Shown: positions 5,041-48,735, numbered from the stretch's first letter. The stretch is 64,000 bases of DNA from an uncultured Dehalococcoidia bacterium (GCA_964421985.1 CAYQZE010000108.1:2224-66223); one strand, 5' to 3'. Translations and numbers: made by a program. Notes: generated by a model not told the origin, from the sequence alone.

Positions 5041-5892
5041 ATGAAGGACCTGCGCGGCGCCAACGCCATCGTTACGGGCGCATCACGCGGCATCGGGCCG
5101 TATATCGCCAGGACGCTCGCGGCACAGGGCGTCAATGTCGCCCTCGCCGCCCGCTCCGCGGACAAGCTCGAGGAGACGCGGCGGGCCTGTGAGTCGCTGG
5201 GCGTGAAAGCGATCGCCGTCGCCACCGATGTCACATCGATGGACGCGTTGCGCCGCCTCGTCGCGACAGCGGAAGCCGAACTCGGCGCGATCGACATTCT
5301 CGTGAACAATGCCGGCATCGAGACGACGGGCGCGCTGGAGACCCTCACCTTCGAGCAGATCGACGATCTGTTGCGGACGAATCTCAACGCACCGATCTGG
5401 TTGTCGAAGATGGTGCTGCCAGGCATGTTGGCCCGCAAGCGCGGCGCCGTCGTGCACGTGTCGTCGATGGCAGGCAAGTCCGGCGCGCCGTACAACTCGA
5501 CATATTCGGCGAGCAAGTTCGGGCTAAACGGATTCTCCGACTCCGTGAATTTTGAACTCGATGGCACGGGCGTCCACATGAGCGTCGTCTGTCCCGGCTT
5601 CGTCAGCGAGGCCGGCATGTGGAAGAACCGGGGCGGCAAGGCCCCCAGGATGGCGCGTGAAGTATCGCCCCAGAAGGTCGCGGACAGCGTGCTGAAGGCG
5701 GTCCGGGGCGCCCGGGAAGTGCTAGTGATGCCGACGCCGATCCGGCCGCTGCTGGCGCTCGCCCAACTGGCGCCAGGTGTGGAGCGGGCGATCGTCAAGC
5801 GGATGGGCATCGTCGCCGCGATGCGCGACAACCCGCAGCCCGCCCCCGCCGCACGCGAACGCGAAACCTCGGATACCGCTTCGCGCCAGTGA
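5041..5892 (+). CDS. SDR family oxidoreductase
   Basis: Has the TGASRGIG cofactor motif, NNAG, and the YSASK (YxxxK) catalytic motif. A strong AAGGAGG RBS precedes the start. Confidence 0.9.
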   Translation: MKDLRGANAIVTGASRGIGPYIARTLAAQGVNVALAARSADKLEETRRACESLGVKAIAVATDVTSMDALRRLVATAEAELGAIDILVNNAGIETTGALETLTFEQIDDLLRTNLNAPIWLSKMVLPGMLARKRGAVVHVSSMAGKSGAPYNSTYSASKFGLNGFSDSVNFELDGTGVHMSVVCPGFVSEAGMWKNRGGKAPRMAREVSPQKVADSVLKAVRGAREVLVMPTPIRPLLALAQLAPGVERAIVKRMGIVAAMRDNPQPAPAARERETSDTASRQ

Positions 5893-5947
5893 ACGGCCGA
5901 CCGCCGCTGCGGCATCGTGCCCGAAACCGTGCTGACAGCGCCGCAAG

Positions 5948-6388
5948 ATGCCGATGCTTCAGGTGATGGATGACGTTCGGCCACGATTGAGCCACGCCGT
6001 AGATGAGATGCTTGCCGCCGGCATTGAGCCGGTGTTCCTGGTCGTCGAATTGCTCGGCGCGGAGTACCTCAGGCCTCAGCTCGGCGGCGAGAGCCTCAGC
6101 AAGTTCCACACAGCGGTCGCGGACGCGATCGTCAGTGCGGCGCGGGGCGGGGCGGCGTTGTCATACGACGATACCTGCATCATCGGCATCCTGCCTGGCC
6201 CCGACCGTCTCAAGACCTTCGCATTGATCGAGAAACTGCGTCGCGCACTGCCAATCCAGGCGCAGTCCTTCGACTGCGTTTTGCAGCCGGACTTCGACGT
6301 GCTGGAGTACGATCCGGGGACGGGCATCGGGGGCGTCATGGCCCAGGTCGTCACGAGACGGCTGATGGCGACGCGCGAAGCCGCCTGA
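5948..6388 (+). CDS. hypothetical protein, possibly a degenerate stand-alone GGDEF-like domain
   Basis: The 146-aa ORF resembles the GGDEF fold pattern (VFLVVELLG...FHTAVADAIV...YDDTCIIGILPG...), but YDDTC replaces GGDEF. No clear RBS. Confidence 0.5.
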   Translation: MPMLQVMDDVRPRLSHAVDEMLAAGIEPVFLVVELLGAEYLRPQLGGESLSKFHTAVADAIVSAARGGAALSYDDTCIIGILPGPDRLKTFALIEKLRRALPIQAQSFDCVLQPDFDVLEYDPGTGIGGVMAQVVTRRLMATREAA

Positions 6389-6579: not shown

Positions 6580-7941
6580 ATGGCAGAGACCATCACCATC
6601 CCCGCCGATCTCGTCGCGAAAGCGCGGGAAAAGGGCTGGCCCGACGACCTTGTGCAGCAGGCGCTGGGTGCGGGTGCATCGGCCGAACAGATCATCGGCT
6701 ACCTCGACCAGGGAGTGACCGCCGAGCAGGCGCGCGGCTTCCTCGCGGCGCAGGCGGGAGCCGGCCCTGAACCGTCGGCCGAACTGAAGACGGCGGCGGC
6801 GGCGGCGCAGTGGCCGGACGACTTGATCAAGCAGGCGCTCGCGGCGGGCGCCTCTGAGACTGACTTGATGAACTTCATAAACATGGGCATCACCGCCGAC
6901 CAGGCGCGCGAGTTCATGGCGCAGGGCGGCCCGCCGCAACTCGACTTGAGCTGGATGCACGTGCCGACCGAGTGGAACACGCGGGCCAAACCGACGAAGC
7001 ACGGGCTGACGCTGGAAGCGATCAACATCGGCAAGTACGGCGAGATCCCCGACGAGTGGCCGTATCAGACGGAGATGCCGCGCGGCGCGGTCCCCATCCC
7101 GGGCGTCGAGTCGATGGGGTACTCCATCTTCCAGAAGCAAGAGGTCTGGTCGGACAACTGCGCTCGCTTGTACGAAGAGGCGATCCAACGCCGCTGGCGC
7201 CCGGCCACAGACGTGCCGTGGGCGTCGATCGAGCCGCTCGCGGAGGACGTCGAGAGGGCGATCTGCCAGATCTGCACGCATATCTCGGAAAAGGAGCAGA
7301 TGGAGGCCGACGTCCTCAGTCGATGGGAGCCCGACATCTCCTACGGCTACCACGAGGTCAAGCTCTACCTGGCGACAACGATCTTCGAGAACGTGCGGGC
7401 GGTTGAGGTGTTTCGCAAGCGCGCCCTCTCGAACGGTGGCGGGCTCGGAGTGCAATCGCCCGGCTGGGGGTTCCGCTCCATCGTCGACGCTCGGAACTTC
7501 ACCGAGATGGTGGCGATCCAGATGGTGCTGCAGGACAGCCTTACGCTGGCGCAGTACCAGTACCTCGAGAAGTACGCCAAGAACCCGGCGGAGCAGTACA
7601 TCGCCGCGCACGCCATGCAGGACAAGGCGCGCCACCTCGCATACGCGGTCAGCCACCTGCAGTACGTGATGATGCATCGTTCGGAGCGGCGAGAGGAGAT
7701 CATGCGCTACCTCGACAAGGGCGAGGGCATGATGCTCCAGGACGACAAGAAAGGCCCCGCCACGCGCGAGGCGTTCGCGGTCTACTTCGGCGGCGGCAAG
7801 GACAACATCCAGGACGGCATGCGGATCTACCGCGAGATGCGCAAGCGGGCCGTCGAGCAGTACCTTGCGCGGCTGAAGTGGGCTACGATTGAGCGCGCGG
7901 ATCGGCTCGCCCCGGAACTGCGGGCCTACCTCGAGTCATAA
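6580..7941 (+). CDS. ferritin-like four-helix-bundle domain protein, paralog 1 (metal-ligand motif degenerate)
   Basis: 453 aa with an AGGAGGG RBS. It is a paralog of the 44511 and 45803 genes, sharing LDLSW, YEEAIQRRWRPATDVPW and FRKRALxNGxGL. It also has an N-terminal tandem ~40-aa repeat (WPDDL[VI].QAL.AGAS...G[VI]TA[ED]QAR.F). Confidence 0.8.
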   Translation: MAETITIPADLVAKAREKGWPDDLVQQALGAGASAEQIIGYLDQGVTAEQARGFLAAQAGAGPEPSAELKTAAAAAQWPDDLIKQALAAGASETDLMNFINMGITADQAREFMAQGGPPQLDLSWMHVPTEWNTRAKPTKHGLTLEAINIGKYGEIPDEWPYQTEMPRGAVPIPGVESMGYSIFQKQEVWSDNCARLYEEAIQRRWRPATDVPWASIEPLAEDVERAICQICTHISEKEQMEADVLSRWEPDISYGYHEVKLYLATTIFENVRAVEVFRKRALSNGGGLGVQSPGWGFRSIVDARNFTEMVAIQMVLQDSLTLAQYQYLEKYAKNPAEQYIAAHAMQDKARHLAYAVSHLQYVMMHRSERREEIMRYLDKGEGMMLQDDKKGPATREAFAVYFGGGKDNIQDGMRIYREMRKRAVEQYLARLKWATIERADRLAPELRAYLES

Positions 7942-8011: not shown

Positions 8012-8452
8012 ATGCCATCGTTCCCGTCCGTCGACTGGTTCAACGCGATCAAGGACATCGTCAACAAGGATCCGGACTTCCGGGCGCTCGGCACCGTCGA
8101 CTGCCTCATGGGCGTGAGAGTCGGGAACAAGATCTTCGAGCTGACATTCGACGCATTCGAGTGCACGACGGTCCGCGAAGCCGGCGAAAACGACCTGCGC
8201 GACATGGACTTCTGGCTCGAGCAGCCGTATGACAAATGGGTGGAGATGATCGAGAACATCAAGAAGCACGGCAAGTCGGACCTTTCTCACACGCTCAACA
8301 CCATCGACCTGAGCATGCCCGAGGGTCTGGCGCGCGCTCACGACGGCTACCGCCGCGACGCGTTCTACCGGTTCAACCAGTCGATCCAGGACTTCTTCAA
8401 CGCCTCGGCGAAGATCGATACGAAGTTCCTGGCCGAAGCCGCCGTCGCCTAA
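8012..8452 (+). CDS. SCP2/sterol-carrier-like domain protein (tentative)
   Basis: I chose the internal ATG at 8012 within track ORF 7889..8452, preceded by GCAGGAGGA. The sequence pattern (DWFNAIKDIVNKDPDFRALGTVDCLMGVRVGNKIFELTFD...) resembles SCP2-type lipid-binding domains. Confidence 0.6.
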   Translation: MPSFPSVDWFNAIKDIVNKDPDFRALGTVDCLMGVRVGNKIFELTFDAFECTTVREAGENDLRDMDFWLEQPYDKWVEMIENIKKHGKSDLSHTLNTIDLSMPEGLARAHDGYRRDAFYRFNQSIQDFFNASAKIDTKFLAEAAVA

Positions 8453-9390: not shown

Positions 9391-9484
9391 CGGTTCTCGG
9401 TTCTCGGTTCTCGGTTCTCGGTTCTCGGTTCTCGGTTCTCGGTTCTCGGTTCTCGGTTCTCGGTTCTCGGTTCTCGGTTCTCGG
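9391..9484. repeat. perfect heptanucleotide microsatellite (CGGTTCT)x13 plus a partial copy
   Basis: I counted 13 identical 7-bp units over 9391..9481, followed by CGG. A degenerate copy CGGTCGC lies at 9384..9390. The array is intergenic, between the GNAT stop (9372) and the phosphotransferase ATG (9501). Confidence 0.97.
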
Positions 9485-10698: not shown

Positions 10699-12720
10699 AT
10701 GATGAACGGCGCCATCAACGGCAAGATGCTCAACGTCCGCCTCAATGCGGGTAGCGTTGAGGTCGAGCAGATCCCGGAGGAGATGTACCGCAAATACCTG
10801 GGCGGCTACGGCATCGGCTCGCGGCTGATGTTCGACCGCATCCCGAAGGGTGCGGACCCGCTGGGTCCCGACAACGTTCTGGGGCTGTTCCCCGGCTTGC
10901 TCACCGGTACACCGTTCTTCGGCATCCGCTACCAGGCAGTCGCTAAATCACCGAAAACGGGCGGCTGGGGCGACGCGAACGCCGGCGGCGATTTCGGCCC
11001 ATACCTCAAGAACGCCGGCTGGGACGGCATCATGCTGTACGAGAAGTCCAGCAAGCCTGTCTACATCCACATCGACGACGACAAGGTCGAGATCAAGGAC
11101 GCCAGCGACATCTGGGGCATGCAGGCGATTGATGTCGAAATGAAGCTGAAGGAACGACACGGCAAGAAGGCCAGCGTCGCCTGTATCGGCCCCGCCGGCG
11201 AGAAGCTGTCACTGATGGCGGGCATCTGCAACGAGCGCGGCCGGCTCGCCGCGCGCAGCGGACTGGGCGCCGTCATGGGCTCCAAGAACGTGAAAGCGAT
11301 CGTCGTCAACGCTTCGAAGAACATCATCGGCTCCAGCCCGGAGATCATGAAGCAGGTGCGCACGTCGCTCGACGAGTTCGCCAAGCCGATCACGAACTTC
11401 TTCCGCACCTACGGCACGACCGGCATCACGTTCCCGTCGGCGATGTCGGGCGATGCGCCGGTGAAGAACTGGGGCGGCGTCGGCATGGTCGAATTCCCGC
11501 AGGCCAACGTGCTCACCGGCGACCAGTTCAATCTGCGCATGGACAAGAAGTACGCCTGCTGGCACTGCCCCGTCGCCTGTGGCGGAGAGTCGTACGCGTG
11601 GAACGAACAAGAGAACCAGGCGAAGGTCCGCATCGCCAAGCGCGAGGGCGACATCGCCGAGTTGAGGACGCAGCTGGCGGCGGCGGCCGACGATGCGAAG
11701 CAGCCGATCGAGGCGAACATCGCCAAACTCACGAACCAAAACGCCGCCGATGGCAAGGTGAAGAACGACGAACGCTACCCGTACCCGCACCACACCCACC
11801 GCGCCGAGTACGAGACGACGACCGCGTTCGGCACGATGATGCTGAACAACGACCTCAACTCGCTCCAGTACGCAAACCACCTCTGCAACCAGTATGGCCT
11901 CGACACGATCGCAGCCGGCGCGACACTCGCCTTCGCCACCGAGTGCTTCGAGAACGGCCTCATCACCAAGGAAGACACCGACGGCATCGACCTGCGGTGG
12001 GGCAACACCGGCGCGATCATGGCGGCCCTGCACAAGATCGGCACGAAGGACGGCGCGTTCGGCGAGTTGTTCGGCGACGGGGTGAAGGCCGCCGCCGCGA
12101 AGATCGGGCCGAAGTCGCTCGAGTTCGCGATGGAGATCGGCGGTGAGGAGCTGCCCATGCACGACCCGAAGCTCCAGCCCGAGTACTTCACCACTTACAA
12201 GCTGGACGCGACGCCTGCCCGCCACACGCAGTACGAGGCGGCACCGCGGCCACAGTGGAACTTCGTGAAGGCGCCGCAAGACCGCACGCAGGCGACGGAA
12301 CGCGGCAAGCATCACAAGGACTCGTCCGAGTACATGCACGTGGTCAACGCGACGGGCATGTGCCAGTTCATCATGATGGGCGCGCCCAACAACCGCCTCC
12401 CCGAGTGGATCAACACCGAGACCGGCTGGGACACCACGCACGAAGAGATGCGTGAGGCGGGCGAGCGCATCGCCAACATGCGCATGGCGTTCAACATCCG
12501 CGAGGGCGACATCCCGACGAAGCGTCGGATCCCCGGTCGGGTCTGGGGTGCATCCCCGCTCGAAGCCGGCCCGCACAAGGACCTCCAGATGGATGTCAAA
12601 ACGCTGGAGCAGGACTTCCTGGCCGCGTGCGACTGGGACGCGGCCACAGCCACGCCGCGCAAGAAGAAGCTCGAGTCGCTGGGGCTCGCGGACGTCGCCG
12701 AGACGATCGGCGCGCGCTAA
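10699..12720 (+). CDS. aldehyde:ferredoxin oxidoreductase family (tungstopterin) enzyme
   Basis: Has an AOR N-terminal domain (LNVRLNAGSVEVEQIPEEMYRKYLGGYGIGSRL...), the 4Fe-4S motif CWHCPVACGG, and EYETT. An AAAGGAG RBS precedes the start. Confidence 0.92.
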   Translation: MMNGAINGKMLNVRLNAGSVEVEQIPEEMYRKYLGGYGIGSRLMFDRIPKGADPLGPDNVLGLFPGLLTGTPFFGIRYQAVAKSPKTGGWGDANAGGDFGPYLKNAGWDGIMLYEKSSKPVYIHIDDDKVEIKDASDIWGMQAIDVEMKLKERHGKKASVACIGPAGEKLSLMAGICNERGRLAARSGLGAVMGSKNVKAIVVNASKNIIGSSPEIMKQVRTSLDEFAKPITNFFRTYGTTGITFPSAMSGDAPVKNWGGVGMVEFPQANVLTGDQFNLRMDKKYACWHCPVACGGESYAWNEQENQAKVRIAKREGDIAELRTQLAAAADDAKQPIEANIAKLTNQNAADGKVKNDERYPYPHHTHRAEYETTTAFGTMMLNNDLNSLQYANHLCNQYGLDTIAAGATLAFATECFENGLITKEDTDGIDLRWGNTGAIMAALHKIGTKDGAFGELFGDGVKAAAAKIGPKSLEFAMEIGGEELPMHDPKLQPEYFTTYKLDATPARHTQYEAAPRPQWNFVKAPQDRTQATERGKHHKDSSEYMHVVNATGMCQFIMMGAPNNRLPEWINTETGWDTTHEEMREAGERIANMRMAFNIREGDIPTKRRIPGRVWGASPLEAGPHKDLQMDVKTLEQDFLAACDWDAATATPRKKKLESLGLADVAETIGAR

Positions 12721-38582: not shown

Positions 38583-41500
38583 ATGTCCGCATTCGACTCC
38601 TTTCATCCCGCGGTACGGGCCTGGTTTGCGAGCCGCTTTGAAGGACCAACGAGCGCCCAACTCGACGGCTGGGATGCGCTCGCCGCCGGCCGCGACGCGC
38701 TGATCGCGGCGCCGACCGGGTCCGGCAAGACGCTGGCGGCGTTCCTGTCGAGCATCGACTCCCTGATCAAACGCGGGCTCGCCGGCGAGTTGCCGGCGGG
38801 CATCGACGTCGTCTACGTCTCGCCGTTGAAGGCGCTGAGCAGCGACATCCAGCGCAACCTCGAAGCGCCGCTGGCGGGCATCCGCGACGCGGCCCGCGAG
38901 ATGGGGATCGCGCCGCCGGACATCCGAGCAGCGCTGCGCACTGGCGACACGCCGCAGGCGGCACGCGCGGCGATCCTCCGCCATGCGCCGCACATCCTGA
39001 TCACGACGCCGGAGTCGCTCTACCTGATGCTCACGGCCGAGCGCAGCCGGGCGCTGCTGACCAACGTGGGCACAGTGATCGTCGACGAATTGCACGCGCT
39101 GATGCGCGACAAGCGCGGCAGCCACCTGATGCTCACGCTCGCCCGCCTCGACGCGCTGTGCGAGCGGCGGCCGATCCGCATCGGACTTTCGGCCACCGTG
39201 CATCCGATCGAGGACGCGGCGCGCTACCTCGTGGGAACCGCGACGGCCGAAGACGATCGCGCGCCCGGCTGCACCATCGTCGACGCCGGCCATCGCCGTG
39301 ACCTCGATCTGGCGATCGAAGTGCCGCCCGCCGACCTTCAAGCCGTGGCCGCGCACGAGCAGTGGGCCGACATCTACGACCGCATCGCAGCCCTCATCAA
39401 CGAGCACCGCACCACGCTCGTCTTCGTCAACACGCGGCGCATGGCGGAGCGCATCGCACACAATCTGGGCGCGCGTCTGGGCGAAGAGCACGTCGCCGCG
39501 CACCACGGCAGCCTCTCGAAAGACAGGCGGCTCCGCCTCGAACAGCGGCTGAAGGCGGGCGAAATGCGCGCCATCGTCGCGACGGCGTCGCTCGAGCTGG
39601 GCATCGACGTCGGCACGGTCGACCTCGTATGCCAGATCGGTTCGCCGCGGGCGATCACGACCTTCCTCCAGCGGATCGGCCGCTCCGGCCACGCACTCGG
39701 CCTGACCTCGCGCGGCCGCCTGTTCGCCACCACGCGCGACGAGCTGCTGGAGTGCGCGGCGCTGGTGCGCGCCGTGCGTGCCGGCCGGCTCGACCGCGTG
39801 GAGCCGCCCGTCGCGCCGCTCGACATCCTGGCGCAGCAGATCGTCGCCGAGTGCGCCTGCCGCGAGTGGGACGAGGACGCGCTCTACCATCTGGTGCGAA
39901 CCGCGACGCCCTTCGCCGCGCTGACGCGTGCGGACTACGAGGACGTACTGGAGATGTTGAGCGAGGGCGCCGCGCCACGCGTCGGACGCGGCCGCGCCCT
40001 CCTGCACCGCGACCGCATCAACCGCACGTTGCGCGGCCGCCGCGCCGCCCGCATCACTGCGATCACCTGCGGCGGCGCCATCCCGGAAGTCGCCGACTAT
40101 CGCGTCATTTTGGATCCGGACGAGACCTTCATCGGCACGGTAAACGAAGACTGGGCGATCGAGAGTATGGCTGGCGACATCTTCCTGCTCGGCTCGCACT
40201 CGTGGAAGATCCGCCGCGTGGAGTCGGCGCGCGGCGTGCTGCGCGTAGAGGACGCGCAGGGGCGGCCGCCCAGCGTGCCATTCTGGCTCGGCGAAGCGCC
40301 GGGACGCACGTGGGAGCTGTCCGAAGAGGTAAGCCGTCTTCGGCGCGACATCGCGGAGCGCCTCGATCCGCCGCAGGACGCCGCCGGCTGGCTGCAGCGC
40401 GAGTGCGCGCTCGACGCCGCCGGAGCATCGCAGATCGTCGAGTACGTCGCCGCCGAACGGGCGGCGCTCGGCATCGTGCCGTCGGACAGCGATATCGTGT
40501 TCGAGCGCTTCTTCGACGACGCGGGCGGCATGCAACTCGTCGTGCACGCACCGTTCGGTGGGCGCGTCAACCGCGGCTTCGGCCTGGCGCTGCGCAAGCG
40601 CTTCTGCGTGAACTTCGACTTCGAGCTGCAGGCAGCGGCGACCGACGACGCGGTCGTGCTGTCGATGGGCCCCCAGCACAGCTTCCCGCTGGAGGATGCG
40701 TTCTCGTTCGTGCGCGCCGCGAACGTCCGCTCGTCGCTCGAACAGGCGATCCTGTACGCGCCGATGTGGGGCGCGCGCTGGCGCTGGAACGCGACGCGTT
40801 CGCTACAGGTGCTGCGCAGCAACGGCGGCAAGCAGGTGCCGCCGCCCATCCAGCGGATGCGGTCCGACGATCTGCTCGCGGCTGTCTTCCCCGAACAGGT
40901 CGGCTGCCAGGAGAACCTGACCGGCCCGCTGCAGATTCCCGATCACCCGCTGACGCGCCAGACCGTGCGCGATTGCCTGCACGAGGCGATGGACGTCGAC
41001 CGGCTCGAAACGGTATTCGAGCGGATCGAACGCGGCGAGATCCGCATGCACGCACGCGACACCACCGAGCCGTCACCATTCGCCCACGAGATCTTGAACG
41101 CGAAGCCATACGCGTACCTCGACGACGCACCGCTGGAGGAACGCCGCACGCGCGCGGTCATGCTGCGCCGCACGCTGCCCCAAAGCCAGCGCGACCTCGG
41201 GCAACTGGATGCCGCCGCCATCGCTCGCGTCCGCGACGAGGCGCGCCCGGAGCCGCGTGACTCGGACGAACTGCACGACCTGCTGCTCAACCTGGTCGCG
41301 TGCAGCCCCTCCGGAGAATGGGGCGCATGGCTTGACGAGCTGATCACCGCCGGCCGCGCCTCCGTGGTACAGACGCAGGCAGGCGACCTCTGGTTCGCCG
41401 CCGAGCATGTGCGCGCTGTCGAAGAGCTCTATCTCGGGGCGCACATCGATCCGCCCGTCGTGCTGCCCGCGCACATCGAAGCGCCATCAGGCACACGGGA

Positions 41501-42896
41501 GGACGCGGTGCTCGCGGTCGTCCGCGGCCATATGGAGTACCTTGGGCCCGCCACCGCCGACGGCATCGCCGCGATGCTCGCGCTGGGCGCGGGCGAAGTC
41601 GCCTCAGCGCTGGCGCACCTCGAGGGCGAGGGCCTCGTGCTCCGCGGTTCATTCACGCCGGAAACGAGCGGAGAAGAGTGGTGCGACCGCCGCTTGCTGG
41701 CGCGCATCCACCGCCTCACGCTCGACCGCTTGCGCAGCGAGATCGAGCCCGTGACGGCGCAGGACTTCATGCGCTATCTCTTCGTGCGGCAGCACGTAGC
41801 CAGCCAGCGACGGTTGGAGGGAAAGCGCGGCGTGCTCGAAGCGGTCGCGCAACTGCAGGGTTTCGAGATTGCTGCGGCGGCCTGGGAACGCGACGTGCTG
41901 CCGATGCGCGTCAGCAACTACAACCCGCAGTGGCTCGACGAACTGTGCCTCGCCGGCGACGTCGCCTGGGCGCGGCTGTCGCTCAAAAAGACAACCGCGC
42001 GCAGCGGCCGCGGCGCAACACCTCATCGGGCAACACCGATCACTCTCGCGCTCCGCCGCGATCTCGGCCGCTTGCTCGAGGTCGTGCGTGGCTCGCAGCA
42101 GCCTGAAGATCCGCCTACGGGCGCCGCTGCAGCAACGCTGGACGCGCTGCGCCAGCATGGCGCGCTGTTTTTCGAAGACCTCGCCGCCGCGAGCCGGCAG
42201 CTCCCCGCGCAGCTCGAAGAGGCGCTCTGGGATCTCGTCGCGCGCGGCCTGGCGGCCGGCGACGGCTTTCAATCGCTGCGACAGATCATGACGCCGGCCG
42301 GGTCGGCGCGCGCCCGCTCGGCGCGGCGGCACAGCCGTCAATCCGGCCCCCGCCTGCCACGCTCGACATCGCCGCACGGCCGGTGGGCCGTCGTTCACCG
42401 CTTCCAGCCGGAGCCGTCGCCCGCGGACGAGCTGGCGGAATCCGTCGCCGAGCAGCTGCTCGCACGGTACGGCGTCGTCTTCCGCGATCTCGTCGCGCGG
42501 GAGAACTTCAGCACGCCCTGGCGCGACGTCGTGCGGGCTCTGCGCCGGATGGAGGCGCGCGGCACCGCCCGTGGCGGGCGATTCGTCGCCGGATTCATGG
42601 GCGAGCAGTACGCCCTGCCCGAGGCGGTGGAAGGCCTGCGCCGCGTCCGTCGCGAGGAGCGCAGCGGGGAGCTCGTGCGGATCAGCGCCGCGGATCCACT
42701 GAACCTCGCGGGCATCATCACGCCGGGCGCGCGCGTGCCGGCCCTGCACACGAACGCCGTCATCTTCCGCGACGGGCTGCCGATCGCCATCGAGGAGGGC
42801 AAGCACACCCTCATCCGTCCCGAGGCCGGTGACGTCGATCTGCGCGACGTGCTGGGGAGTCGTCGAGCGCTGCCGATCCCTGCCGCCCGACCGTGA
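38583..42896 (+). CDS. lhr: Lhr-type large ATP-dependent DEAD/DEAH helicase
   Basis: 1437 aa with motif I APTGSGKT, motif II VDELH and a long Lhr-like C-terminal region. Confidence 0.92.
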   Translation: MSAFDSFHPAVRAWFASRFEGPTSAQLDGWDALAAGRDALIAAPTGSGKTLAAFLSSIDSLIKRGLAGELPAGIDVVYVSPLKALSSDIQRNLEAPLAGIRDAAREMGIAPPDIRAALRTGDTPQAARAAILRHAPHILITTPESLYLMLTAERSRALLTNVGTVIVDELHALMRDKRGSHLMLTLARLDALCERRPIRIGLSATVHPIEDAARYLVGTATAEDDRAPGCTIVDAGHRRDLDLAIEVPPADLQAVAAHEQWADIYDRIAALINEHRTTLVFVNTRRMAERIAHNLGARLGEEHVAAHHGSLSKDRRLRLEQRLKAGEMRAIVATASLELGIDVGTVDLVCQIGSPRAITTFLQRIGRSGHALGLTSRGRLFATTRDELLECAALVRAVRAGRLDRVEPPVAPLDILAQQIVAECACREWDEDALYHLVRTATPFAALTRADYEDVLEMLSEGAAPRVGRGRALLHRDRINRTLRGRRAARITAITCGGAIPEVADYRVILDPDETFIGTVNEDWAIESMAGDIFLLGSHSWKIRRVESARGVLRVEDAQGRPPSVPFWLGEAPGRTWELSEEVSRLRRDIAERLDPPQDAAGWLQRECALDAAGASQIVEYVAAERAALGIVPSDSDIVFERFFDDAGGMQLVVHAPFGGRVNRGFGLALRKRFCVNFDFELQAAATDDAVVLSMGPQHSFPLEDAFSFVRAANVRSSLEQAILYAPMWGARWRWNATRSLQVLRSNGGKQVPPPIQRMRSDDLLAAVFPEQVGCQENLTGPLQIPDHPLTRQTVRDCLHEAMDVDRLETVFERIERGEIRMHARDTTEPSPFAHEILNAKPYAYLDDAPLEERRTRAVMLRRTLPQSQRDLGQLDAAAIARVRDEARPEPRDSDELHDLLLNLVACSPSGEWGAWLDELITAGRASVVQTQAGDLWFAAEHVRAVEELYLGAHIDPPVVLPAHIEAPSGTREDAVLAVVRGHMEYLGPATADGIAAMLALGAGEVASALAHLEGEGLVLRGSFTPETSGEEWCDRRLLARIHRLTLDRLRSEIEPVTAQDFMRYLFVRQHVASQRRLEGKRGVLEAVAQLQGFEIAAAAWERDVLPMRVSNYNPQWLDELCLAGDVAWARLSLKKTTARSGRGATPHRATPITLALRRDLGRLLEVVRGSQQPEDPPTGAAAATLDALRQHGALFFEDLAAASRQLPAQLEEALWDLVARGLAAGDGFQSLRQIMTPAGSARARSARRHSRQSGPRLPRSTSPHGRWAVVHRFQPEPSPADELAESVAEQLLARYGVVFRDLVARENFSTPWRDVVRALRRMEARGTARGGRFVAGFMGEQYALPEAVEGLRRVRREERSGELVRISAADPLNLAGIITPGARVPALHTNAVIFRDGLPIAIEEGKHTLIRPEAGDVDLRDVLGSRRALPIPAARP

Positions 42897-43019: not shown

Positions 43020-44330
43020 ATGGCTGACATCCGCGATCTGGCCGAACGACTGTGGAACGGTACGCTCACGACCCGTGAGGTGCACCCCGTGACGGAGCAG
43101 TTCCGCGAAGGGGTCGAGATCTTGCCCGGCGTGCTCTTCTACAAGGGGTTCGCCAGCGCCAACACCATCGACACGGGCGAAGCGCTCGTCATGCTGGACA
43201 CAGGCGCCGTGACCGATACGAAGGCGCTGTTCGAGGCCGTGCGCAAGTGGCGCCCGGACACACCGCTCGCAGCCGCCGTCTTTTCGCACCATCACGTCGA
43301 CCACATCTTCGGCGTCGGACCATTCGAGCGCGAAGCCGGCGAGAAGCGCTGGACGCGCCCGCTCGTCTACGGGCACGCCGGGCTCGCGCCAAACTTCGAC
43401 CGTTACAAGAAGACGCGCGGCTGGAACGCCGCGCTCAACGTACGCCAGTTCGCGTTTCCGGTCGCGCGCCCGGACGGGCGCCCGCCTGGGCGCTTCGAAT
43501 GGCCGGAACACTACCGCTACCCTGACGTGTCGTATCACGACCGCATGACCTTTCGCAGCGGCGACCTCACGTTCGAGCTGAATCACGGCCGCGGCGAGAC
43601 CGACGACGCGACGTGGACGTGGATCCCGGAGCGAAAGATTCTGGCGCCCGGCGACTTGTTCATCTGGGCCGTGCCGAACGCCGGTAACCCACAGAAGGTG
43701 CAGCGCTTCGCCGGCGAATGGGCGGCGGCGCTGCGCAAGATGTGCGCCCTGGGCGCAGACACCATGATCCCCGGCCACGGCCTGCCGATCTTCGGCGACG
43801 ATCGCATCCGGACGGCGCTCACCGACACCGCCGACTTGCTTGATTCGCTTGAGGCGCAGGTTCTGGCGCTGATGAGCGCCGGTGCGCCGCTCGACCGCGT
43901 GCTGCACGAAGTGCAGATGCCGGAACATCTGCTCGCGAAGCCCTACCTGCGGCCGGTGTACGACCACCCGCAGTTCATCCTGCGCAACATCTGGCGCCTC
44001 TACGGCGGCTGGTACGACGGCGAGCCCGACAATCTGCTGCCGGCGCCTCGCGCCGAGCAGGCGCGCGAATGGGTGTCGCTCGCGGGCGGCCTGGACAGCG
44101 TGCTGGAGCGCGGGGCTGCGCTGAAAGCCGCGGGCAACCTCCGCCTCGCGTGCCACATCGTAGAGTTCGCCGTGCTCGCCGAGCCTTCCTCGAAGGAGGC
44201 ACACGCGCTTCGAGCCGAGGTGTACGGCGCCCGATCGAAGCTGGAAGAGTCGTCGATGTCCCGCAACATCCTCAACCACGCCGCCCTCGCCAGCCAGCAG
44301 GGCAAGCGGGACCTCGCCGGCGAGTACTGA
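43020..44330 (+). CDS. MBL-fold alkyl/aryl-sulfatase-like hydrolase lacking the C-terminal SCP2 domain
   Basis: Contains HHHVDH (HxHxDH) and a region resembling the alkyl-sulfatase dimerisation domain (NIWRLYGGWYDGEPDNLLP...AAGNLRLACHIVEF). The protein ends right after it. A CAGGAGG RBS precedes the start. Confidence 0.85.
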   Translation: MADIRDLAERLWNGTLTTREVHPVTEQFREGVEILPGVLFYKGFASANTIDTGEALVMLDTGAVTDTKALFEAVRKWRPDTPLAAAVFSHHHVDHIFGVGPFEREAGEKRWTRPLVYGHAGLAPNFDRYKKTRGWNAALNVRQFAFPVARPDGRPPGRFEWPEHYRYPDVSYHDRMTFRSGDLTFELNHGRGETDDATWTWIPERKILAPGDLFIWAVPNAGNPQKVQRFAGEWAAALRKMCALGADTMIPGHGLPIFGDDRIRTALTDTADLLDSLEAQVLALMSAGAPLDRVLHEVQMPEHLLAKPYLRPVYDHPQFILRNIWRLYGGWYDGEPDNLLPAPRAEQAREWVSLAGGLDSVLERGAALKAAGNLRLACHIVEFAVLAEPSSKEAHALRAEVYGARSKLEESSMSRNILNHAALASQQGKRDLAGEY

Positions 44331-44510
44331 CGCGCGGGTGCGCCGGCCACCGTCCGGCGCCGCCACCCCCGTCGGACTGCGCCTCAACCGGGGAAAAGAT
44401 TAGGCCATGTGGCGCTGGATCGGATCCCGTGCGAGGCCGTATGCTATGGGCACGCACCGGAGCCCCTGCGGCCGATGCTGCTACTAGACCGCACCCTGAG
44501 GAGGCGCAGC

Positions 44511-45593
44511 ATGCAGTCCAATATCCTGGAAGAACTTCGCAAGGAGTCGGGCGGCGAAGACCTCGACCTGTCGTGGCTCGACAAGCCGGCAGCGGAACGC
44601 GGACTGCGCGTCGCCCCGGGCCGCCGCGGGCTGACGCTCGAGGACATCGCCACCCAGTCGTACGGCGATATCCCTGACCACACCAGCAACCAGAGCGGTC
44701 GCATGCGCGGCGCCGCCCCACGCAAAGACCAGCAGCGCACGTCGAACCACTGGGGCGACAAGTCTGCCTCGTGGTCCGACTCGGCGATGCTCCTCTACGA
44801 AGAGGCCGTGCAGCGCCAGTGGAGCAGCGCCACCGACATCCCGTGGGCGGAGCTGCCGGACCTGCCGGAGGAGATGGAGCTGGCAATGTCGCAGCTCTGC
44901 ACCTTCCTTACCCAGGTCGAATTCATCGCCGGCGACGTGCCCGGCATGTACGCGCCGAACATCAGCGGTGAATTCTTCGAAGTTGGCATGTTCCTCGCCA
45001 GCCAGATCATGGACGAAGCGCGTCACCTTGATGTGTTCCGAAAGCGCGCGCTCGCCAACGGCATCGGCCTGCTGAAGGCCGGGCCGGGTGCGATCGGGCT
45101 CCTCGTCGCGCAAGACTTCACCGAGATGGCCTCGACACTGCACCTGGTCGGCGAGGGCTTTGTGCAGTCGATGTTCCGCATGGGCGAGATGTTCGCCCAG
45201 AGCGAAGTCGACAAGCGCATGTTTCGCCTCGCTGCACAGGACGAGAGCCGGCACGTCGCATTCGGGGTCATGCACATGAAGCACGTGATGGAGACGCAGC
45301 CCGAACGGCGCGACGAGATCCACACCTACCTCGACCGCATGGAGGGCAACCTCGGCACCGGTTCGACGCAAGCGGGGCTGACGGGCGGCGGCGAGACGGG
45401 CGAGGCACTGGCGATCCTGCTCGGCGGCGGCACCAGCGAGGCTCAACTCCGCGAGGGGTACGGCAAGCTGCTGGCGATCCGCAAGCGCCAGGTGAACGAG
45501 TACATGCACCGGCTGGAGGTCGTGGGACTGGGCGACCGCCGCCAGCGCATGAATCCCTTCATGGCGATGCTGCTGGACCCGCCGAAGAATTAG
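44511..45593 (+). CDS. ferritin-like diiron-carboxylate protein, paralog 2 (complete E..ExxH..E..ExxH motif)
   Basis: The ATG at 44511 is preceded by GAGGAGG. Ligand-like pattern: QVEF ... (32 aa) ... DEARH ... VGEGF ... (30 aa) ... DESRH. It shares LDLSW, LYEEAVQRQWSSATDIPW and FRKRALANG with the other two paralogs. Confidence 0.8.
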   Translation: MQSNILEELRKESGGEDLDLSWLDKPAAERGLRVAPGRRGLTLEDIATQSYGDIPDHTSNQSGRMRGAAPRKDQQRTSNHWGDKSASWSDSAMLLYEEAVQRQWSSATDIPWAELPDLPEEMELAMSQLCTFLTQVEFIAGDVPGMYAPNISGEFFEVGMFLASQIMDEARHLDVFRKRALANGIGLLKAGPGAIGLLVAQDFTEMASTLHLVGEGFVQSMFRMGEMFAQSEVDKRMFRLAAQDESRHVAFGVMHMKHVMETQPERRDEIHTYLDRMEGNLGTGSTQAGLTGGGETGEALAILLGGGTSEAQLREGYGKLLAIRKRQVNEYMHRLEVVGLGDRRQRMNPFMAMLLDPPKN

Positions 45594-45802
45594 AGGTTGG
45601 AGGGCAGACGTTGGAGGTTGGATCGCCAACCCAGACCGTCCGCCTGGAGATCGAACTGTGGGGGCACGCGGCGGTCGAAGAGTCGCCGCAGGAGACCGTG
45701 CCCTTGCTCTGACCAGTAACGCAGCAGCGAAAGCACAGGTAGGGGCGCAGCCCGCTGCGCCCGCATCGGGCGATGACGCCCGAACAGACAGGACACAAAC
45801 GG

Positions 45803-46894
45803 ATGGCTGACGCAGACACGAAGACCGAAGCGCCCGCGGCGGAAGACCCGTTAGCGCCGCAGATCCCCGGGATCATCACGCCGCCGGCGCTGGACATGAG
45901 CTGGGCGAAGGTGCCGACCGAGCGGCCGCCGAAGCCGAAGATCGGCGCCGAGGGCTTCACCCTCCGTCTCGCCGACGCCGGCGCCTACGCCTGGGTGCCT
46001 GACCACTGGCCGTACGAGAACGACACACCGCGCGGCTCCTACCCCTCCAAGGATATGGGGCTTCCGGCTCCCTACACCATCTACGACAAGGCCGAGTGTT
46101 GGGCCGACAACGCCGCCGACCTCTACGAACTCGGTATCAAGGAGCAGTGGAAGCCGGCAACGCAGATCTCCTGGGGCTCGATCGAGCCACTTGCCGACCA
46201 CATCGAAGCGGCGATCGATCAGATCGTCTCGAACTTCTCCGAACAGGCCTACAACTCGAACGCGGCGCTGATGGGCCGGCTCAAGGATCTCTCGTACGGG
46301 TTCCACGAGGTGAAGCTCTACCTGGCCACGCAGGTGTTCGACCACGCGCGTCACGTCGAGGCGTTCCGCAAACGCGCCCTCGCCAACGGCGGCGGCCTCG
46401 GTGTGCAGACGCCGGGCTTCTTCAATCGCACCGTGTCCGCGTCGTTCAAGTTCACCGAGCTCGTCGTCTACACGAATATCATCCGCGGCTCGTTTCTCCT
46501 CGCGGTGTGCGAGGCCGGCGACAAGATCGGCCGCTCCCAGGCCGACCGGCAGCTCTTCGAGTTGACGGCGAACGACTTGCGGCGCCACCTCGCATTCGGC
46601 ATCGAGCACCTCCGCTACTACTTGCTCCAGGGCAGCGAAGCGAAGCGCCGCAACGTGCGCGTCTGGCTGGAGCGCGCCGAGATCATGATGGCCGCCGACC
46701 TCAAACGCGACACGCCGCTGCGCGAGGCGTTCATCCTCGCCCTCGGCGACACGGTCGCGAAGGGCAAGATCGGGCTGAAGGCCTTGCGCGATGCGCAGCT
46801 CCGCAAGTACCTCCTGACGCTCGAAGCAGCGACATACCGCGGGCACGAGAAGTTCGTCACGCAGTCGATGCGCGAGGCCGTCGACAACCCGTAG
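45803..46894 (+). CDS. ferritin-like domain protein, paralog 3 (ligand motif degenerate)
   Basis: It is closest to paralog 1 (HEVKLYLAT, FRKRALANGGGLGVQ). The equivalent ligand positions read A / HxxH / G / LxxH. The start at 45803 is tentative; the track ORF starts at 45773. Confidence 0.78.
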   Translation: MADADTKTEAPAAEDPLAPQIPGIITPPALDMSWAKVPTERPPKPKIGAEGFTLRLADAGAYAWVPDHWPYENDTPRGSYPSKDMGLPAPYTIYDKAECWADNAADLYELGIKEQWKPATQISWGSIEPLADHIEAAIDQIVSNFSEQAYNSNAALMGRLKDLSYGFHEVKLYLATQVFDHARHVEAFRKRALANGGGLGVQTPGFFNRTVSASFKFTELVVYTNIIRGSFLLAVCEAGDKIGRSQADRQLFELTANDLRRHLAFGIEHLRYYLLQGSEAKRRNVRVWLERAEIMMAADLKRDTPLREAFILALGDTVAKGKIGLKALRDAQLRKYLLTLEAATYRGHEKFVTQSMREAVDNP

Positions 46895-46930
46895 TTGGTC
46901 TGGGTGAGTGATTCGTCATTGGTGACTGGT

Positions 46931-46960
46931 GTCGAGGGCAGACCGCGGTCTGCCCTCGAC
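46931..46960. terminator. strong GC-rich hairpin after ferritin-like paralog 3 (putative terminator or RNA-stability element, no U-tract)
   Basis: Perfect inverted repeat GTCGAGGGCAGACC-GC-GGTCTGCCCTCGAC (13-14 bp stem), 37 nt after the stop. Confidence 0.5.
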
Positions 46961-47022
46961 CGTGCACTGCCCCTCACACAAACGGTCCGCACTCGTCGAG
47001 CAATTCGGTTCGGAGGCACACG

Positions 47023-47788
47023 ATGACCACCTACACCCACCTCCAGACGCGCCGCGATGGCAGCGTCCTCATCGTGACGATGGCGAACCCGCCGAAGAAC
47101 CTGCTCAACGCCGCCATGGTGGCGGAACTGCTCGCCCTGGTCGACACGCTGCCGGACGACGAGCAGACGCGCGTGCTCGTACTCGCCGGCGGCGCCGACG
47201 GCATCTTCATCACCCACTACGATGTCGGTGAGCTCACAACGCTCTCAGCGCGACCTGCATCCGCTCAACCGGCTTTCGCTGAAGTTAGGGGCGCTGCCGC
47301 AGCCGGTGATCGCCGCGGTCAACGGCACGGCGATGGGCGGCGGCTGCGAACTGGCCCTCGCCTGCGACTTCCGCATCATCGCGCGCGGCGGCGTGTTCGG
47401 GCTGCCGGAGGCGCGCATCGGCCTGCTGCCCGGAGCCGGCGGCACGCAGCGGATGGCGCGCATGCTCGGCACTGCGAAGGCGATGGAGTTGATCATGCTC
47501 GGCAACGCCATCGACGCCGACACGGCCGAGCGCCTCGGCCTCGCCTACCGCGCGGTCGACGCAGATCGCCTGATGCCCGAGGTGATGGCGCTGGCCAACG
47601 AGCTGGCCGCCCGCCCGCCGCTCAGCCTCGCGCTGATCAAGCAGTGCATCCGCCGGGGCATCGAGATGCCGCTCGAGGACGCCCTGCGCTTCGAGTCCGA
47701 CGCCTTCATCCAGACATTGCGCTCCGACGACGCCTCGCGCCTGATGCGCGCCTACCTGTCGAGCGCACGCCCGCTCAACGAACAGTGA
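47023..47788 (+). pseudogene. enoyl-CoA hydratase/isomerase family gene interrupted by a single +1 frameshift
   Basis: The N-terminal 75 aa (frame of ORF 47023..) read as crotonase (VLIVTMANPPKNLLN...FITHYDVGEL). The rest of the fold (LPQPVIAAVNGTAMGGGCELALACDFRI...) continues in the frame of ORF 47222..47788. The junction lies within about 47236..47255. Confidence 0.8.
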
Positions 47789-47896: not shown

Positions 47897-48163
47897 ATGC
47901 CGTCACAAAAGGCACTGCTGGACCGAATCGATGGGCTGCGAGCCAAACGAAACAACGTCCACGGTAGGGAGCTTTTTCCGATCGCGCTGGCGGTTGGGCG
48001 GGTTGAGTCGAGGCGGGGAAAGCACCGGGTGTTCGAAAGGCCGGGACGCCCGCCCTTGCCGATACCGGATCACCCGCGGGCCATGGCGGGTCGTACCGTG
48101 ATGAACATCCTGCAGATTCTAGAGGACGATATCCGCAGTGACCACAGCAGCTGGACGGAGTGA
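47897..48163 (+). CDS. hicA: HicA-like toxin (type II TA)
   Basis: RRGKHRVFERPGRPPLPIPDHPRAMAGRTVMNILQ resembles the HicA core (G-S/K-H...P.H). It overlaps the downstream hicB and lies in a low-GC islet. Confidence 0.7.
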   Translation: MPSQKALLDRIDGLRAKRNNVHGRELFPIALAVGRVESRRGKHRVFERPGRPPLPIPDHPRAMAGRTVMNILQILEDDIRSDHSSWTE

Positions 48164-48735
48164 TGGAGAACCTATCAGTGCTTGCTACTAATGACATTCT
48201 TCGCAAGCCGTACAGCCGTGTGATCCTTCCGGACGACACAGGCCTGTACGCAGCCGAGCTGCTGGAGTTTCCGGGTTGCTACGCGGATGGCGCGACTCCA
48301 GAAGAGGCTTATCTCAATCTCGAAGACGTGGCCGAAGCATGGATTGAGAGCGCGAGAGCACAAGGGTTTCCAGTTCCGGAACCATTCGCCGATGCAGAAC
48401 ATAGTGGGACTGTTTCGCTTCGTTTACCCAAGAGCATCCACAGCCGCGCTGTCCAATTTGCCTATCGTGACGGCGTAAGTCTTAACACGTTCTTGGTCTC
48501 CGCAGTGTCTGTAGCGGTTGGCGCCGAGGAATTGGCCACCAGGGCGACCAATTTGATCAGCGAGGCGCTCGCAACGATCGAGGCACGACAGACGACCTAC
48601 TCTGTGTACACGGAGGCGATGTCGATCCTTAGTCAGGCTCAACTTCCGAGCGGAGAATCGAAGTCGTTGTTCCTCCAGTATGGGCAGCACTCGCTAGATC
48701 TTCGTGACCGGACAAGTATGCAGATCCGAGGGTAG
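48160..48735 (+). CDS. hicB: HicB family antitoxin (N-terminal HicB fold plus RHH-like DNA-binding region, long C-terminus)
   Basis: YAAELLEFPGCYADGATPEEAYLNLEDVAEAWIESARAQGFPVPEP and SLRLPKSIHSRAVQFAYRDGVSLNTFLVSAV. The start overlaps the hicA stop (GTGATG). Confidence 0.8.
   Translation: MMENLSVLATNDILRKPYSRVILPDDTGLYAAELLEFPGCYADGATPEEAYLNLEDVAEAWIESARAQGFPVPEPFADAEHSGTVSLRLPKSIHSRAVQFAYRDGVSLNTFLVSAVSVAVGAEELATRATNLISEALATIEARQTTYSVYTEAMSILSQAQLPSGESKSLFLQYGQHSLDLRDRTSMQIRG

Follow-up and report, generated by a model that had tools for sequence, protein, structure and literature searches.

The R2lox oxidases are known as homodimers, and in yeast Rnr2/Rnr4 and other heterodimers of R2, the small subunit of ribonucleotide reductase (RNR), a catalytic subunit is joined by a paralog without metal ligands that helps in folding or in assembling the cofactor or has a structural part. 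Long-chain fatty acids are bound by R2lox, and C16/C18 hydroxy fatty acids co-purify with it (PMC9314684). Delivery of its substrate may depend on another protein or on a membrane partner, and a hand-over through a partner has been proposed (PMC9314684). GkR2loxI has been reported as an alkane hydroxylase (PMC10867098), and the physiological function of R2lox-type Mn/Fe oxidases was described in 2022 as unestablished (PMC9314684). The present analysis concerns 64,000 nucleotides (nt) of DNA from an uncultured Dehalococcoidia bacterium (GCA_964421985.1, CAYQZE010000108.1:2224-66223), the whole of which is called the window here. Two adjacent open reading frames (ORFs) on its plus strand encode related proteins, namely P1 (44511..45593, 360 amino acids (aa)), with a predicted R2-like ferritin fold and a complete dimetal ligand set, and P2 (45803..46894, 363 aa), a paralog of P1 without the metal carboxylates. 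It is moderately probable that the two are subunits of a heteromeric R2-like dimetal-carboxylate oxidase in which P2, the beta subunit, would be the non-catalytic pseudo-enzyme partner of P1, the alpha subunit. A third, ligand-degenerate paralog of the beta type, P3 (6580..7941, plus strand, 453 aa), carries an N-terminal extension and lies 37 kb away, with a gene for a small accessory protein (gamma, possibly SCP2-like; 8012..8452, plus strand, 146 aa) directly 3' of it.

Attempts to place P1, P2 and P3 in a Pfam family found none, the only trace being a score of 16.7 bits for P1 against Ribonuc_red_sm (PF00268), for which the cut-off is 33.6. P2 and P3 had no match to that model, and neither Phenol_Hydrox (PF02332) nor PaaA_PaaC (PF05138) matched any of the three at E-values up to 0.1. 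The R2lox models of NCBIfam also stayed below threshold, the best (NF006200) scoring 40.9 bits with P1, where 194 is required, 16.3 with P2 and 17.9 with P3. A profile of 143 family members searched against the PDB had chains of the Geobacillus R2lox (GkR2lox) as its best match at E 6e-5, and the alignment paired the two ExxH motifs (DEARH with DEAKH, DESRH with DEGRH). The next matches were other R2lox entries, a VlmB homolog and phenol hydroxylase, the last of these weak (E 0.017) and lying over the second ExxH motif.

The AlphaFold2 (AF2) model of P1 was confident, with a predicted local distance difference test score (pLDDT) of 85.7 and a predicted template-modelling score (pTM) of 0.85, and in it the ligands sit on four long helices (120-150, 153-179, 203-223 and 232-262). 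When the model was compared with the PDB by Foldseek the top E-value (7.5e-5) was that of the Mn/Fe NrdB of C. trachomatis. The R2lox chains were found with a probability of 1.00 and target-normalised template-modelling (TM) scores of 0.51-0.64 (0.63 for GkR2lox), and other R2 proteins and MmoX were also among the matches, all at 13-19% identity. Because of these profile, model and sub-threshold family results the P1 family is regarded as a separate and distant branch within the R2/R2lox section of the ferritin-like superfamily, P1 itself being modelled as a ferritin-like four-helix bundle of the R2 type with a predicted dimetal-carboxylate site. An earlier reading made from the sequence alone (the sequence-only reading) had proposed a four-helix-bundle dimetal-carboxylate fold for P1, which the model and the matches to R2lox and R2 support. 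It had also taken PaaA/PaaC and BoxB as models, and kinship with these is not supported, as the nearest proteins by both fold and sequence are R2, R2lox and the Mn/Fe NrdB and there was no PaaA_PaaC match.

The family is large, with 719 clusters at 50% identity (E up to 1e-3). Its named members come nearly all from metagenome-assembled genomes (MAGs) of Chloroflexota/Dehalococcoidia, in which oxidative metabolism is poorly known, together with one Acidimicrobiia MAG, and they are annotated just as 'ferritin-like domain-containing' or 'hypothetical'. A literature search found nothing describing the P1/P2 family and no experimental study of it. One candidate that the literature did offer, the Mn/Fe heterodimer AibH1H2, was rejected, since it is not ferritin-like and is kin of PtmU3, an amidohydrolase-related dinuclear oxygenase.

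The ligand set of P1 comprises E137, E169, H172, E215, E245 and H248 (EEHEEH), with 31 and 29 residues between the carboxylates where 32 and 30 had been counted previously. In the alignment P2 has A, H, H, G, L and H at these columns and P3 has E, N, A, D, K and H, so that P3 is degenerate as well, a point absent from the sequence-only reading. Ligand conservation was followed in 120 database homologs of each protein plus the query (n = 121), the eight commonest patterns being listed for each of the P2 and P3 families. EEHEEH was found in 120/121 proteins of the P1 family and the pattern is therefore not due to chance. P2 homologs retain both His, have Leu at column 245 in 120/121 cases and carry no carboxylate at any ligand column in each of the eight commonest patterns. 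In the P3 family Lys at 245 is invariant, Ala stands at 172 in 119/121 and Asp at 215, and none of the eight commonest patterns holds a complete ligand set. A further 104 loci from genomes and metagenomes gave the same result: all P1-like genes with readable ligand columns were EEHEEH, and the genes 3' of them showed 30 distinct degenerate patterns with not one complete set. The distinction first drawn between a ligand-complete P1 and a degenerate P2 (A, HxxH, G, LxxH) is thus borne out by alignment and by the homologs.

Other residues also set the two types apart. There are 28 alpha-specific invariant residues, mostly on the ligand-bearing helices, among them D142, D174, K235 and H211, which lies four residues before E215. 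In the second sphere the beta proteins retain the pairs D168/R171 and D244/R247, and they also keep the motif FRKRALxNGxGL, which argues that they are under selection for something besides metal binding. The pairwise identities are 29-32% for P1/P2, 33-35% for P1/P3 and 40% for P2/P3, making P2 and P3 the closest of the three. The relatedness of the adjacent P1 and P2 that had been noted from the sequence is therefore confirmed, and the alignment likewise upholds LD[LM]SW, W..AT....W and FRKRALANG as motifs common to the paralogs. F176 of P1 occupies the position of the R2 radical Tyr, four residues after H172, and is matched in the alignment by the Phe of HVEMF, a motif of R2lox. Together with Glu at the first ligand this would fit the Mn/Fe group without proving it.

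The gene order of these proteins was surveyed in loci sorted by tblastn and ligand pattern, their neighbour genes being identified by all-ORF clustering and tblastn. In the 66 loci with at least 1.3 kb of DNA 3' of the complete subunit, the next same-strand gene was a degenerate paralog in 52 (51 by automated count, and L001 from its gene calls). A caveat that must be applied to such counts is that many of the loci come from related MAGs and are not phylogenetically independent. The adjacency spans 47-98% identity to P1 and two beta lineages, P2-type genes being found 3' of alpha genes 57-98% identical to P1 and P3-type genes 3' of those 47-58% identical. The P2 ortholog directly follows the P1 ortholog in L001-L041 wherever the DNA is present, and a P3-type gene stands directly after the complete subunit in ~25 loci between L042 and L102 (e.g. 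L053-L055, L077, L080-L083, L086-L095 and L097-L102). The gap between alpha and beta is 1 nt in L002 from gene calls and 1-13 nt in L045, L092, L097 and L041 from ORF limits. The tandem pair that had been picked out in the window is therefore co-encoded over a wide evolutionary range, as is predicted for a heteromer of a catalytic and a structural subunit.

Some P2-type betas (P0205, P0206, P0212, P0217, P0229 and P0233) bear an N-terminal SnoaL_2 (NTF2-like) domain of ~100 aa, and in L105 (2251-3606) and L106 the fused beta lies directly 3' of a 361-aa, P1-sized gene without a Pfam match. In one subclade, with betas of the 'ALHDRM' type, a regulator of the DtxR/IdeR/MntR family (Fe_dep_repress, Fe_dep_repr_C, FeoA) was found upstream of the pair in 14 loci (L071, L080-L082, L084-L090, L093, L094 and L099), on the opposite strand in 13/14. 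The same 14 loci have a response-regulator/GGDEF-type gene in 10, a CMD-family gene in 8 and a downstream sortase gene in 8.

It is also clear from the survey that P3 and the small protein are linked to the pair. Homologs of the small protein, in one or two copies, lie 3' of a P3-type gene in L010, L053, L092, L095, L097, L101, L102, L107 and L108, and in L053, L092, L095, L097, L101 and L102 the full order is alpha, P3-type beta and then one or two of these homologs. Since alpha, P3-type beta and small protein form one operon in distant relatives, the genome of the window would carry the system split over two loci. In L010 the P1-P2 and P3/small-gene loci are 3 kb apart, and L007, whose P1 is 95% identical, has no P3 there, though the small gene and the gene usually found upstream of P3 are present 5.5 kb 3' of P1-P2. 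The sequence-only reading had remarked on an SCP2-like gene adjoining P3; the link to the pair stands, being one tight operon in distant relatives, and the SCP2-like label has faint support.

The label has been approached in two ways. None of 13 homologs of the small protein matched Pfam, the SCP2 family (PF02036) included. A profile search of the PDB gave faint matches, two of them of the SCP2 type (2cx7, E 1.8; TT1886, E 2.3). The single-sequence AF2 model was poor (pLDDT 44), and Foldseek with it returned the SCP2-like TT1886 at the top (E 0.038, probability 0.97) and UbiJ-SCP2 (6H6O) second. An SCP2-like fold is plausible from the agreement of these two weak but independent pointers.

The surroundings of P3 are conserved too. 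One to three genes for short-chain dehydrogenases/reductases (SDRs), a ~140-aa protein without Pfam family, P3 and the small protein follow one another in the same order in the window (5041-6388), L107 (5496-7791) and L108 (5583-7864). The ~140-aa protein of the window (5948..6388, plus strand, 146 aa) is of unknown fold and had no Pfam match. Its homologs lie directly upstream of P3 in L010, L107 and L108 and beside the small gene in L007, and its membership of the system is tentative. An SDR beside a putative hydroxylase system would fit the oxidation of an alcohol after hydroxylation. Within P3, residues 1-125 (6580-6960) hold two ~37-aa repeats of the form WPDDL[VI].QAL.AGAS......I.A[ED]QAR.F with faint Pfam SinI matches, and two homologs are annotated 'EF-1beta' by one source. 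In L007 (18017-19226) the homologs of the 5948-6388 protein and of the small gene stand 338 nt apart with no P3 between them.

In the system envisaged, the four-helix core of P1 would house a cofactor of two metals (Fe/Fe or Mn/Fe), and P1 alone would activate O2. P2 would be a duplicated copy which, having lost the metal carboxylates, replaces the second protomer of the R2/R2lox homodimer and serves as a structural or substrate-channelling pseudo-enzyme. P3 would be a second beta-type subunit, encoded with a small protein of probable SCP2-like lipid-binding fold, and either this protein or, where fused, the NTF2-like domain might hand over a hydrophobic substrate. The likely chemistry would be a hydroxylation or a related two-electron oxidation. 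From published work on R2lox and by analogy, a hydrophobic aliphatic or lipid-like molecule is the likely substrate, made plausible by the kinship with R2lox, the weakly SCP2-like partner and the SnoaL/NTF2 fusions on some P2 homologs. A bolder version is advanced tentatively and is itself on the unlikely side: that the R2lox branch has here its first heteromeric member, with a Mn/Fe or Fe/Fe alpha, a pseudo-enzyme beta of two lineages and an SCP2-like carrier delivering a lipid or hydrocarbon. Such a three-part system would be widespread in uncultured soil Chloroflexota, with distant copies on other metagenome contigs.

Several observations weigh against this picture. E137 aligns one residue off E69 of R2lox, and E215 falls outside the sequence-profile alignment. 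P1 is also without the Val-Tyr cross-link pair of R2lox. In GkR2loxI this is V72/Y162 (numbers from PDB entry titles), with Y162 five residues before the third ligand, and in P1 the residues upstream of E215, FTEMASTLHLVGE, include no Tyr, position -5 being Leu and position -4 the alpha-invariant His. The proposed P1-P2 heteromer is drawn from gene order alone, and in the window the P1-P2 gap is 209 nt. There was no paralog in 1.4-10 kb of downstream DNA for 14/66 alpha-type genes, and the catalytic subunit is thus apparently able to work alone in some lineages. These singletons have no conserved neighbour, with TetR, ABC-2, SDR and acyl-CoA synthetase genes scattered in 3-4 loci each. No reductase or ferredoxin gene was conserved near the pair in the annotated contexts and conserved neighbour clusters, and the SCP2 label of the small protein goes back to a model of pLDDT 44 and to E-values near 1.

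The singletons and the 209-nt gap also speak for another explanation, in which P1 acts alone as a homodimer and P2 and P3 are independent pseudo-enzymes of ligand-binding or regulatory function, adjacent merely as a result of tandem duplication. No alpha gene adjoins P3 in the window, L107 or L108, and L007 lacks P3 between its two usual neighbours, as independent proteins might. However, alpha and beta remain adjacent in loci as distant as 47% identity, several lineages having only 1-13 nt between them, two distinct beta lineages have each been retained directly 3' of alpha, and interface-type motifs are common to alpha and beta, so that independent action is considered improbable.

A role in metal handling or oxidative stress, as a ferroxidase, peroxidase or metal sensor regulated by metal availability, is suggested by certain neighbours: the DtxR-type regulator is divergently adjacent in the 14-locus subclade, a CMD/AhpD-family gene occurs in eight of its loci, and thioredoxin and peroxiredoxin-fold genes adjoin the pair in L001 and L002. 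The regulator, however, is confined to one related group, where shared ancestry may explain it, and no redox neighbour is conserved across the family. The 360-aa R2-type build with a degenerate partner is typical of oxygenases and R2, not of ferritin/Dps cages or rubrerythrins, and the residues near the site that are invariant and specific to alpha point to a defined pocket for the substrate. Little probability is accordingly given to this role, and the heteromeric oxidase remains the preferred reading of the pair.

The genes that flank the pair in the window had led to a different proposal, that of a multi-component diiron oxygenase acting on a coenzyme A (CoA)-activated substrate in the manner of PaaA/PaaC or BoxB, with a metallo-beta-lactamase (MBL)-fold hydrolase and a crotonase as partners. 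Four genes do adjoin on one strand there: the MBL gene (43020-44330), P1, P2 and the crotonase gene (47023-47788), with a gene for an Lhr-type helicase (38583-42896) before them. Between the four lie gaps of 180, 209 and 128 nt, each one less than first reported (181, 210 and 129). The starts of P1, P2, P3 and the 8012-8452 gene agree with an independent gene call, identical proteins from one NCBI contig of 68,867 bp being on record, and P1 has a GGAGG Shine-Dalgarno sequence 7 nt 5' of its ATG. Two domains were recognised in the MBL protein, which ends at residue 436: Lactamase_B at E 2e-13 and Alkyl_sulf_dimr at E 1e-34. The Pfam scan thus agrees with the initial observation that the SCP2-type C-terminal domain is missing, and the protein fails the three-domain architecture of alkyl sulfatases (SdsA1/YjcS type). 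The gene accompanies the pair only in L005, L006, L007, L019, L025 and L031, where P1 is 94-98% identical, and in L006 it is displaced by 5 kb; in L017, L018, L021 and L032 P1 is immediately preceded by the gene for the Lhr helicase.

The crotonase shows a similar restriction. Fourteen related loci have it 3' of P2, every one of them at >=84% identity, and it is absent from L005, L009, L011, L015, L028, L001, L002 and all loci below ~80% identity. In the window the gene changes frame near 47245, so that the N-terminal 74 and C-terminal 180 codons are in different frames, and it is 62 nt shorter than intact orthologs of 275 aa (e.g. L007 12405-13232), with the loop 'DAVR...ADRPRR' lost. Either a real pseudogene or an assembly error could account for this. 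Its C-terminal part scores well, below cut-offs, against PaaF/PaaG-type and oxepin-CoA hydrolase models, which speaks for a CoA pathway. Against such a pathway stand the absence of PaaA_PaaC or Phenol_Hydrox matches, the fold kinship with R2 and R2lox, the distribution of both neighbours, the frameshift, and a strong hairpin that separates P2 from the crotonase. Both flanking genes, MBL and crotonase, are thus neighbours by descent and not conserved partners of the pair, the CoA-thioester inference loses its conserved genomic basis because both are lineage-restricted, and a CoA pathway is very unlikely. Recognition of this lineage-specific context removes a misleading pathway inference.

The hairpin noted there (46931-46960, plus strand) is real, RNA folding giving a perfect 13-bp stem with the loop CGCG and arms that are inverted copies of GAGGGCAGACC. 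It starts 37 nt 3' of the P2 stop codon and has no U-tract, and the intrinsic-terminator scan left it uncalled for want of a T-run. Probably the P1-P2 transcript has its 3' end here, or the hairpin makes the mRNA more stable. GAGGGCAGACC is present in both intergenic regions, and the idea that it is a dispersed repeat was rejected, with 3 matches found against 1.7 expected.

Most improbable of all is a divergent RNR small subunit, a beta/beta-prime heterodimer like Rnr2/Rnr4 with a class Ic-type Mn/Fe radical-generating cofactor: NrdB as the top Foldseek match, F176 at a position occupied by the radical Tyr in class Ia and by Phe in class Ic, and the P3 Lys in place of the second-motif Glu, reminiscent of the metal-free class Ie R2 with Lys in place of that Glu, all favour it, and it is opposed by the sub-threshold Ribonuc_red_sm score of P1, an identity to R2 proteins of only 13-17%, a conserved N-terminal extension of ~85 aa not described for R2, the linkage of the pair to a small SCP2-like protein instead, and the absence of Ribonuc_red_lg among the called genes of five loci (L001, L002, L105, L107 and L108; whole genomes were outside the survey).

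Elsewhere in the window a HicA/HicB pair (47897-48163 and 48160-48735) and a 107-aa ORF lie between the crotonase and an aldo-keto reductase gene. The reductase directly follows the crotonase in L007, L021 and L023, and the HicA/HicB segment therefore looks like an insertion. A perfect heptanucleotide tandem repeat, CGGTTCT x 13.4 with 100% matches (9391-9484), lies in the spacer between a GNAT acetyltransferase gene (end 9372) and an APH-family kinase gene (start 9501), and could act as a slipped-strand switch. A gene for a tungsten/molybdenum-type aldehyde:ferredoxin oxidoreductase (AFOR; AFOR_N and AFOR_C, 10699-12720) is found 2.3 kb downstream of the P3 locus. No Rfam family matched anywhere in the window.

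Comparison with described systems returns the argument to a heteromeric oxidase of P1 and P2. MmoX/MmoY, TmoA/TmoE and PaaA/PaaC also encode an EEHEEH alpha and a degenerate homologous beta adjacently, and MmoX and phenol hydroxylase gave weak fold and sequence matches to P1. This is a matter of shared design, not of shared family membership, for P1-P2 have no Phenol_Hydrox or PaaA_PaaC match and MmoX is far larger than either of them. The L001, L002 and L105 contexts and the conserved neighbour clusters contained no gene for a reductase, a ferredoxin, an MmoB-type effector or PaaB/D/E. COQ9 for COQ7, and the SCP2 protein UbiJ in the Ubi metabolon, are lipid carriers serving hydroxylases, COQ7 being a ferritin-like diiron enzyme. 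The likeness extends to UbiJ-SCP2 as second-best fold match of the small protein, whereas the P1 system has no sequence relationship to COQ7/COQ9, no quinone-biosynthesis genes nearby and a weak SCP2 label.

Rnr2/Rnr4 show the same division between a catalytic subunit and a ligand-free paralog, but they are true RNR subunits, while P1 and P2 are only ~30% identical and have no link to nucleotide reduction. The class Ic R2 of C. trachomatis shares with P1 the top Foldseek E-value, Glu at the first ligand and Phe for the radical Tyr. P1 differs from it in lying below the Pfam R2 threshold, in the putative heteromeric pairing, in its termini and in having no RNR large subunit in the neighbourhoods examined.

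The closest likeness is to R2lox, which has the same E/E/H/E/E/H set, Glu at site 1 and Phe in place of the radical Tyr, and which supplies the best profile match of the P1 family and its best target-normalised fold match. P1 is nevertheless 15-19% identical to it, scores far below the NCBIfam cut-offs, is without the cross-link pair and has an extra conserved N-terminal arm of ~85 aa. The P1 family keeps a near-perfect ligand set with no Pfam model to describe it and, unlike R2lox, has genetic partners, a ligand-degenerate paralog and often a small, probably lipid-binding protein. If the three-part system is as tentatively proposed, it would offer a genetically defined substrate-delivery partner, the missing handle on the cellular role of R2lox-type oxidases.

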